Source of the DNA: a virus
Lineage: Duplodnaviria; Heunggongvirae; Uroviricota; Caudoviricetes
Reading direction: 5' to 3' (one strand)
Virus record (IMG/VR): IMGVR_UViG_2585427783_000007
DNA length: 26,156 bases
This document shows, piece by piece, positions 25,370 to 26,156 of this stretch (the stretch's first letter is position 1; every line of letters starts with the position of its first letter). The notes beneath the pieces are model-generated. The model was given only the letters and a program-made list of their open reading frames with translations, made no database searches and was not told the DNA's origin. Both the position numbers and the translations under genes were made by a program.

Positions 25370-25986
25370 TGGCATTCAGAATGAGTGAACAATCACGTAC
25401 TGTAAAAATTTATAACCTGCTGGCCGGAACTAATGAGTTTATTGGTGAAGGTGACGCATATATTCCACCTCATACAGGGCTGCCAGCTAATTCTACAGAT
25501 ATCGCCCCACCGGAAATTCCTGCTGGCTTTGTGGCAATTTTTAACAGTGAAAATGAATCGTGGAATATTGTTGAAGACCATCGTGGTAAAACGGTCTATG
25601 ACGTGGCATCGGGGGACGCGTTGTTTATTTCTGAACCCGGACCGCTACCAGAGAATGTCACCTGGTTGTCGCCAGCAGGGGAATATCAGAAGTGGGACGG
25701 CGTATCCTGGGTGAAGGATGAGGAAGCAGAAAAGCTGTTTCGGATACGGGAAGCGGAAGAGAAAAAGGCAAGGTTGATCCAGGAGGCAACAGATAACATC
25801 GCAATTCTGCAGGATGCAGTTAATCTTGAAATAGCAACAAACGAGGAAAATTCACAACTGGATTCCTGGAGAAAATACAGAGTATTAGTGAGTAGAATTG
25901 ACACCAGTACAGCTCCGGATATCGTATGGCCAGAGCTGATGAATCAGGGTTATGTGCGGGAGGACGAGCAGATAACTTCAGACTGA
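25369..25986 (+). CDS. G: Tail fibre assembly chaperone (P2 gpG-like)
   Basis: ATG overlapping the H stop (TAATG), GTGAGG RBS; 205 aa; conserved N-terminal part and variable C-terminal part typical of Tfa proteins. Confidence 0.8.
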
Positions 25987-26156
25987 AATTTAGTGATGAA
26001 TGTTGAATCATCAGGAATATCATGCAATACCAATGCATGAGCACCTATTGTGACATTGTTTCCTATACGCACTTTGCCACCAAGAATGGTGGCATTACAA
26101 CCAATGGTCACATTATGTCCTATAACAATATCCATATCATTAAAATCACCACGTAG
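25950..26156 (-). CDS. Hexapeptide-repeat (left-handed beta-helix) acetyltransferase, 3' portion only; 5' end lies beyond the window
   Basis: Minus-strand frame reads ...[42 protein letters not shown]..., consecutive [LIV]-G-x4 hexapeptide repeats, open to the window edge; convergent on gene G and overlapping its 3' end by 37 nt. Confidence 0.55.

Follow-up and report, generated by a model that had tools for sequence, protein, structure and literature searches.

The viral DNA stretch IMGVR_UViG_2585427783_000007 (Caudoviricetes; the window, 26,156 nucleotides (nt) at its full length) ends within an acetyltransferase-like gene of the hexapeptide-repeat type, which converges on the tail-fibre assembly gene G of a P2-like prophage. 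We propose, with a probability of roughly 0.45, that this is a lysogenic-conversion gene whose product modifies the lipopolysaccharide (LPS) core or another envelope glycan and masks the receptor. In the proposed mechanism, the gene would be expressed in the lysogen from its own promoter, and the product would transfer an acetyl group from acetyl-CoA to an intermediate of an envelope glycan, most probably of the LPS core, at the cytoplasmic side of the membrane. The changed surface structure would be what phages with related fibres adsorb to, which would give superinfection exclusion or lysogenic conversion, and the altered surface would protect the progeny from debris. The initial annotation, which was based on the sequence alone, had described the end of a beta-helix acyltransferase and suggested that it modifies surface polysaccharide. 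That observation is confirmed and the interpretation is partly supported: a surface-glycan role is backed indirectly by linkage to the fibre chaperone gene (tfa) and by relatives in LPS-core clusters, with the LPS core as the likely target in place of the capsule or O-antigen.

The features at the end of the window are as follows.

25950-26156, minus strand: 3´ part of the hexapeptide-repeat gene (codons 114-181 and the stop codon), from translation, Pfam and identical DNA.
25369-25986, plus strand: tail-fibre assembly gene G (gpG/Tfa type, 205 amino acids (aa)), from the list of open reading frames (ORFs) and the annotation of identical DNA.
25950-25986, both strands: overlap of the two convergent 3´ ends (37 nt), from the ORF coordinates.
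24710-25369, plus strand: tail-fibre tip (gpH residues ~667-885), from tblastn of H.

The visible part of the gene is a 68-codon frame without stops (26156 to 25953, minus strand) that is followed by its stop codon at 25950-25952. Since this fragment by itself passes the Pfam Hexapep family (PF00132; 29.9 bits versus a cutoff of 27, E 3.9e-7), the repeat signal in its 68 residues is more than chance. The fragment match, together with the modelled fold described below, bears out the left-handed beta-helix C-terminus that had been read on the opposite strand, and the overlap of 37 nt with the end of G is exactly as first noted. The gene runs off the end of the window, and the sequence past 26156 was deduced from identical neighbour genomes. 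Over its last 857 nt, the window agrees fully (100% identity) with at least 12 complete Escherichia coli chromosomes, several of which are enterotoxigenic E. coli (ETEC) of serotype O6:H16, and this segment is an exact substring of one of the loci retrieved (L001). In those identical genomes (L001, L003, L004) the frame extends to an ATG and encodes the 181-aa protein WP_001418511.1, of which the window holds residues 114-181. The gene is thus intact, with no disruption upstream, in these identical contexts, and the intactness of the window's own copy is judged from these neighbours; the complete ORF that had been sought beyond 26156 is present there, as is a promoter-like block. The best full-length match of the window among complete E. 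coli genomes shows 98.5% identity over 95% of the query.

The window covers the left and central part of a P2-like prophage (Peduoviridae, E. coli), with replication endonuclease, portal, terminase, capsid, baseplate, H and G. Past the acetyltransferase-like gene, the identical genomes continue with U, T, E', E, FII and FI, then D, ogr and hok, before the host junction at serS or tRNA-Leu/pgsA. Because these tail genes, D, ogr and hok precede the host junction, the gene lies inside the prophage and is not a housekeeping gene of the host. A query of tfa plus the acetyltransferase gene is at least 80% covered in 226 of 5426 complete E. coli genomes (~4%).

In Pfam, the full 181-aa protein yields only hexapeptide repeats (PF00132, 47.7 bits versus 27). 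The best NCBIfam match is EpsC (NF041874), which is nearly full length and reaches 81.2 bits versus a cutoff of 150; cysE (TIGR01172) reaches 70.7 versus 210.65, PRK11132 44.5 versus 397, and WcaB (TIGR04016) 59.9 versus 194.65 and 62 versus 196. In PHROGs, residues 1-180 match positions 4-184 of the 185-position profile of phrog_2154, an uncharacterised family, with an E value of 3.3e-78. The AlphaFold2 model of a 97%-identical cluster representative has a predicted local distance difference test score of 92.5 and consists of four N-terminal helices followed by a left-handed beta-helix. The top 50 Foldseek hits in the PDB are all serine acetyltransferases (SATs; one is deposited under a domain-style title), with template modelling scores of ~0.7 and 21-27% identity, and the best PDB sequence matches are likewise CysE enzymes. 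As judged from the repeats and the modelled fold, the protein is a soluble member of the hexapeptide-repeat superfamily with an SAT fold, for which acyl transfer is predicted only; it is presumably trimeric. It belongs to none of the CysE, WcaB or NeuO families.

The database names of WP_001418511.1 given by the annotation pipeline PGAP are 'serine acetyltransferase', 'DapH/DapD/GlmU-related' or 'LbetaH domain', and the first of these is probably a misnaming. It would require the gene to be a genuine serine O-acetyltransferase (EC 2.3.1.30), a CysE-type auxiliary metabolic gene, a reading that the closest solved structures share with the name and that we regard as very improbable. The resemblance to CysE lies in an alpha-helical N-terminal domain followed by a left-handed beta-helix. 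In contrast to CysE, the protein is shorter by about one third (181 versus ~273 aa) owing to a short N-terminal domain, falls far below both CysE model cutoffs given above, and is encoded in a prophage, not in a context of cysteine metabolism. The catalytic pair of CysE, which we take from the CysE structure literature to be Asp143-His158 in E. coli numbering, is replaced by Thr and Tyr, and the serine-binding Arg192 and His193 by Met and Asp. Furthermore, CysE uses a terminal Ile to bind CysK, and the C-terminus here (…SSSRT) lacks it. EpsC and the colanic-acid enzyme WcaB, both short SAT-like acetyltransferases of polysaccharides, are closer in size and offer a precedent for the kind of mechanism proposed here, as they are cytoplasmic enzymes that decorate lipid-linked glycan units. 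The protein differs from them in scores well under the equivalog cutoffs, in the Tyr that its clade carries in place of the catalytic His, and in its neighbours, which are phage tail genes with no exopolysaccharide genes nearby.

A scan of viral contigs for homologues yielded 80 loci. In 61 of the 80, a Tfa-like ORF is convergent with the homologue, and the two 3´ ends are -30 to +36 nt apart; this linkage recurs in 8 of 16 lineages (clusters at 80% identity, spanning 34-100% identity to the protein here). The same convergent arrangement is found in Hafnia phage yong2, in Citrobacter phage phiNP ('sat'), in the P1-like phage-plasmid JL22 ('sacF', beside the cin/S/U region) and in a Salmonella Mu-like prophage. 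In a Proteus prophage, the homologue is convergent on, and overlaps, a 457-aa ORF that follows the baseplate genes and is a presumed tail fibre. Within the clade of the window, two backbones (L038 and L047) illustrate the exchange: in tblastn searches H residues 667-885 are 95% and 76% identical and G is 98% and 82% identical, respectively, and U and T of the phage here have no match in either. The fibre tip, G and the acetyltransferase gene are thus shared as one module between unrelated backbones. Within the backbone of the window, the acetyltransferase allele changes together with the tfa allele; in the sibling prophages L057 and L058, this site is occupied by an allele of 49% identity, along with a different tfa allele.

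Such tight physical linkage to tfa, the position of the gene downstream of and co-directional with the FI-U late operon, and a 31%-identical homologue in the late structural block of virulent Streptococcus thermophilus phages (987 group), where it follows the receptor-binding genes directly and on the same strand, would also suit a late-made trimeric beta-helix protein that acetylates, or helps to assemble, the likewise trimeric fibre or its chaperone. We consider such a maturation or virion factor improbable. The gene is nearly always convergent with the fibre operon and carries a promoter-like block of its own; a sibling phage of the same backbone does without it, and copies exist as lone chromosomal genes and in waa clusters.

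G is the convergent partner of the gene. Its last ~13-16 codons exceed the usual Tfa end (…WPELVE or …WPVAPQ) and are antisense to the C-terminus of the acetyltransferase. In an allele of 91% identity, the two genes are separated by 17 nt and there is no overlap. The 5´ two-thirds of G are 87% identical in DNA to lambda stf/tfa. More precisely, window positions 25300-25766, which span the terminal part of H and two-thirds of G from its start, show 86-88% DNA identity to the junction of stf and tfa in lambda and in many lambdoid phages, and the last third of G does not share this likeness. The point where the lambda likeness stops marks a recombination joint inside tfa. One viral contig (L054:4343-5041) has lost G and the fibre tip through a deletion: the 3´ end of its acetyltransferase gene, in which the last ~11 codons are replaced, is joined directly to a middle part of H (residues ~219-371).

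Outside the viral set, homologues are found in LPS-core clusters. The waa cluster of Leminorella grimontii contains a homologue of 40% identity, in the order GT8 glycosyltransferase (WaaJ/O/R type), WaaY, an MptE-like gene, the homologue and a convergent WaaL ligase. Ectopseudomonas mendocina (24 contigs) carries a member in the Pseudomonas core cluster, among three WaaP-family kinases, a carbamoyltransferase and a GT2 glycosyltransferase, with MsbA farther on, and the homologue of Pseudomonas folii has a Wzy_C ligase-like gene immediately upstream of it. Neighbourhoods on several genome contigs that were typed by Pfam comprise waa clusters, this type of ligase-like neighbour and unrelated neighbours, and a tfa profile search found no tfa beside any of the 80 genome-contig homologues, which are in chromosomal contexts. 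Viral loci without tfa linkage are heterogeneous, with a type VI secretion system gene, an integrase, a weak GT9 match or a weak MptE-like match nearby. A weakly MptE-like gene (PF01973) adjoins the homologue at three loci, namely the waa cluster of Leminorella, a genome of Halomonas and a single viral contig (L099:3153-3926, L106:3168-3953, L096:4810-5490), and the pair may be a two-gene unit for glycan modification.

Assembly of the LPS core takes place at the cytoplasmic face of the inner membrane, and beta-helix acetyltransferases are soluble; it is mechanistically plausible that the core is acetylated there. For phage phiNP, which has a homologue behind tfa, the receptor is the LPS outer-core GlcII (PMC6456863). 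The gene itself, ORF4, is merely listed as 'fitness' cargo in that study (PMC6456863), and 'sacF' of JL22 is stated as unexplained (PMC9603915). A preprint on seroconversion by Hf4s was set aside as irrelevant, since it concerns a Gtr cluster.

The proposed role is shared with known prophage systems that use other proteins. The AT3 seroconverting O-acetyltransferases (Sf6 Oac, OafA/GtrC) also acetylate LPS and block adsorption, and their genes are near the receptor-binding gene. In contrast to these integral-membrane enzymes, which act during or after export, the protein here is predicted to be a soluble beta-helix with no AT3 domain in Pfam, and would act in the cytoplasm, probably on the core and not on the O-antigen. 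NeuO, the K1-capsule O-acetyltransferase of prophage CUS-3, had been offered as an example of such cargo. It is a prophage-borne hexapeptide-repeat acetyltransferase that changes a surface polysaccharide, and to this extent the analogy is sound, as a generic one. The gene here is of the SAT-type sub-fold and not the NeuO/Maa type, the phage type differs, and NeuO is present neither among the best 60 sequence matches nor among the top 50 fold matches. No tandem repeat tract comparable to the 5´ heptanucleotide repeat of neuO was found in the gene or its upstream region, which argues against phase variation in the manner of NeuO.

The claim that the gene is prophage cargo holds. Its GC content is 0.37, compared with 0.50-0.55 on both flanks. 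In the sibling prophage L097 (serS, strain M00057), T and U are 97-99% identical and the acetyltransferase gene is absent. Between U and tfa, this sibling has only an 87-nt inverted tfa fragment (L097:10264-10350), which may be the relic of a duplicated or invertible fibre segment. A block of ~75 nt upstream of the ATG is retained in the window-type allele and in 95%- and 91%-identical alleles, and the DNA farther upstream is unrelated in the three contexts. Within the block, TAGAAA is separated by 17 nt from TACAAT (TATAAT in the other alleles), which makes the block a candidate sigma-70-like promoter. Because the block is shared while the DNA beyond it is not, the mobile unit would comprise promoter and gene, a cassette of ~620 bp that fits a classic moron. 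A promoter-like block, deviant base composition and presence/absence polymorphism among near-identical phages are thus found together.

The site resembles the Z/fun site of P2, to which it had been equated. The fun(Z) gene of P2 is flanked by G, on which it converges, and by the FI promoter; here, too, a presumably non-essential, AT-rich cargo gene is directly behind G and convergent with it. The equivalence does not extend to the other flank, which is the 3´ end of U. The gene is placed between the 3´ ends of G and U, co-directional with U and 180 nt downstream of it, with a hairpin in between, because the FI-U operon is inverted relative to P2. The cargo itself is also different: P2 Fun(Z), which blocks the growth of T5, is unrelated to the protein here and has no tblastn match in the locus.

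The Z/fun hotspot of P2-like phages often houses defence systems (PMC13586616; bioRxiv 10.1101/2024.10.15.618418), and it is a mixed-purpose site where fibre and tfa genes are exchanged as well (bioRxiv 10.1101/2024.10.15.618418). This location, the organisation as a single gene with its own putative promoter, and the presence of family members elsewhere among the P2 cargo sites (next to int, or following hok at the ends of prophages) would also be consistent with an intracellular anti-phage defence or counter-defence enzyme that acetylates a phage or host protein, a nucleotide or a metabolite, and not a glycan. We regard this as rather unlikely. A scan of the full protein against PADLOC-DB 2.0 matched no family at E <= 1, and neither of two papers on the P2 hotspots mentions an acetyltransferase. 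What the gene is linked to, in many unrelated phage backbones, is the tfa/fibre-tip module and not the P2 hotspot itself, and relatives reside in LPS-core clusters.

Several points weigh against the proposed modification of an envelope glycan. About half of the lineages are not linked to tfa, and some members are lone chromosomal genes, for example between copA and cueR; the position after the last late gene is also simply one that tolerates insertions. The relatives in LPS clusters are only 33-41% identical to the protein here, and all of them are of the His type at the catalytic position. Late read-through from U may still occur despite the hairpin after U. The fibre tip is similar to lambda Stf, which binds the protein OmpC, so that acetylation of LPS would touch the receptor only indirectly. 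The searchable literature yielded neither a functional study of the family nor an experiment on any of its members. With regard to catalysis, each of the three printed HMMER alignments places Thr73 and Tyr88 opposite Asp143 and His158 of CysE ('VDIHP' and 'LDHATG'), and position 88 is His in 26 of 26 distant relatives compared, with Asp or Glu at position 73 wherever tabulated. Since the copy here is without the catalytic pair, catalysis in the clade defined by Thr and Tyr is putative. The acetyltransferase identity given to the gene at first thus stands as far as the fold is concerned, and not with respect to activity.

The replacement is specific to this clade. Thr73 and Tyr88 are found in every clade copy for which these positions are resolved, both in viral contigs (copies of at least 85% identity) and in Hafnia phage yong2; in more divergent relatives of the clade (P0007-P0015), Tyr88 is kept and position 73 is Thr or Lys. 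The more distant relatives from the viral survey (34-49% identity) have Asp or Glu plus His in every case, and His with an acidic residue also predominates among the genome-contig homologues, with a few exceptions among the remotest. The 'GDRHPKI' loop of CysE, which contains the serine-binding Arg192-His193, aligns to 'NDMDIVI', in which Met121-Asp122 occupy these positions. The clade-specific changes further include Q108P, T/N95G and D/E130T; together with the change of loop 121-122 to Met-Asp, they are fixed in 9 of 9 clade members compared with the 26 His-type relatives. Three of these residues (M121, D122 and T130) are within the fragment visible in the window. In contrast, the beta-helix coils and the family-invariant Gly, Ile and Pro positions are fully retained in the clade. 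The ratio of nonsynonymous to synonymous substitution rates (dN/dS) within the clade is 0.07-0.09 at dS 0.28-0.70, which shows that the protein is under strong purifying selection and is still used.

The correlated loss of both residues of the pair, the other clade-fixed changes, the lack of any alternative His that is conserved throughout the clade, and the evidence from dN/dS that the protein is in use are what would be expected of a neo-functionalised pseudo-enzyme. On this account, the Thr-Tyr clade would only bind, and would sequester a sugar-nucleotide or lipid-linked intermediate or inhibit a host enzyme of envelope or receptor assembly; a cell-surface or exclusion phenotype could still result. 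We consider this an unlikely explanation, although the least unlikely of those set against glycan modification. The retained coils and invariant positions argue against it, as does the invariance of Tyr88 in the clade, which suggests a functional role for this residue. Moreover, some hexapeptide N-acetyltransferases, such as QdtC and WlbB from the work of the Holden laboratory, act without a catalytic base, and the loss of His is therefore no proof of lost activity. If the enzyme does modify an envelope glycan, the chemistry of the clade may differ from that of the rest of the family, and probably either the acceptor or the chemistry has shifted; one example would be an amine acceptor, for which a general base is not required.

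The prophage is a distant relative of P2, with proteins only 32-48% identical to those of P2. Its FI-FII-E-T-U operon is on the strand opposite to H-G and divergent from D-ogr, unlike in P2 (L004:7081-12656). We rejected the idea that the FI-U inversion is a recent rearrangement that truncated D, which PGAP annotates as a 266-aa D plus a 93-nt fragment. In a tblastn search with P2 D, residues 15-384 align in one piece, which shows that D is full length and that the PGAP start is probably wrong. No convincing long inverted repeats flank the FI-U segment, and the inverted layout is normal for the lineage, because it recurs at different integration sites. In O6:H16 ETEC, the prophage copies have suffered internal deletions, which left an M-I fusion and a P/O-J fusion (L001:8303-9402, L003:8009-9882); in these degraded copies the module of fibre, tfa and acetyltransferase is still intact and 100% identical. 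A hok/gef toxin gene follows ogr at the right end of this prophage type (L004:14417-14557). In another E. coli prophage type, a His-type homologue of the acetyltransferase is directly after hok and beside copA (L178-L181:~4662-4803). The record ON470591.1 (L002; Escherichia phage vB_EcoM-613R2, 'complete genome', 26.6 kb) stops 283 nt beyond the acetyltransferase gene and is without the entire FI-U/D/ogr region; it probably represents a predicted prophage that was cut short, and not a complete phage.

A second cargo site is located between gpA and gpQ, at the old/tin position in P2. Window positions 8989-10267 encode a ParM protein (StbA_N plus ParM C-terminal domain) and a Plasmid_stab_B protein, a plasmid-type partition pair that is unusual for an integrating P2-like phage and that gave no PADLOC match. 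At the same hotspot, window positions 10287-11395 hold ORFs of 144 aa (plus strand), 124 aa (plus strand) and 128 aa (minus strand), for which no Pfam or PADLOC match was obtained; they could be cargo or defence candidates, or non-coding sequence.

A wider and more doubtful reading is that the gene represents a widespread SAT-fold 'receptor-module' class; in myovirus backbones, among them those of P2, Mu and P1, it would be inherited as one unit with the tip of the fibre and the chaperone. Its members would modify the LPS core from the cytoplasmic side, in a mode of seroconversion distinct from AT3 and Gtr, and the E. coli Thr-Tyr clade would have acquired a new acceptor or possibly a non-catalytic action. 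The gene is already in the databases; the family picture, with a fibre-linked SAT fold, LPS-core relatives and a clade free of the catalytic pair, appears not to have been described previously. The Thr-Tyr clade offers a natural experiment on how hexapeptide acyltransferases alter or lose catalysis. Surface-remodelling prophage genes decide which phages infect a strain and alter its antigenic structure, and are thus relevant to phage therapy, to typing and to LPS-based vaccines against ETEC and other E. coli. Seroconverting acetyltransferases known so far are either NeuO or membrane proteins of the AT3 type. If the proposed role is true, the soluble SAT-fold family would provide a further, easily testable route to receptor masking that is aimed at the conserved LPS core, and a widespread misnaming as 'serine acetyltransferase' in the databases would be corrected.

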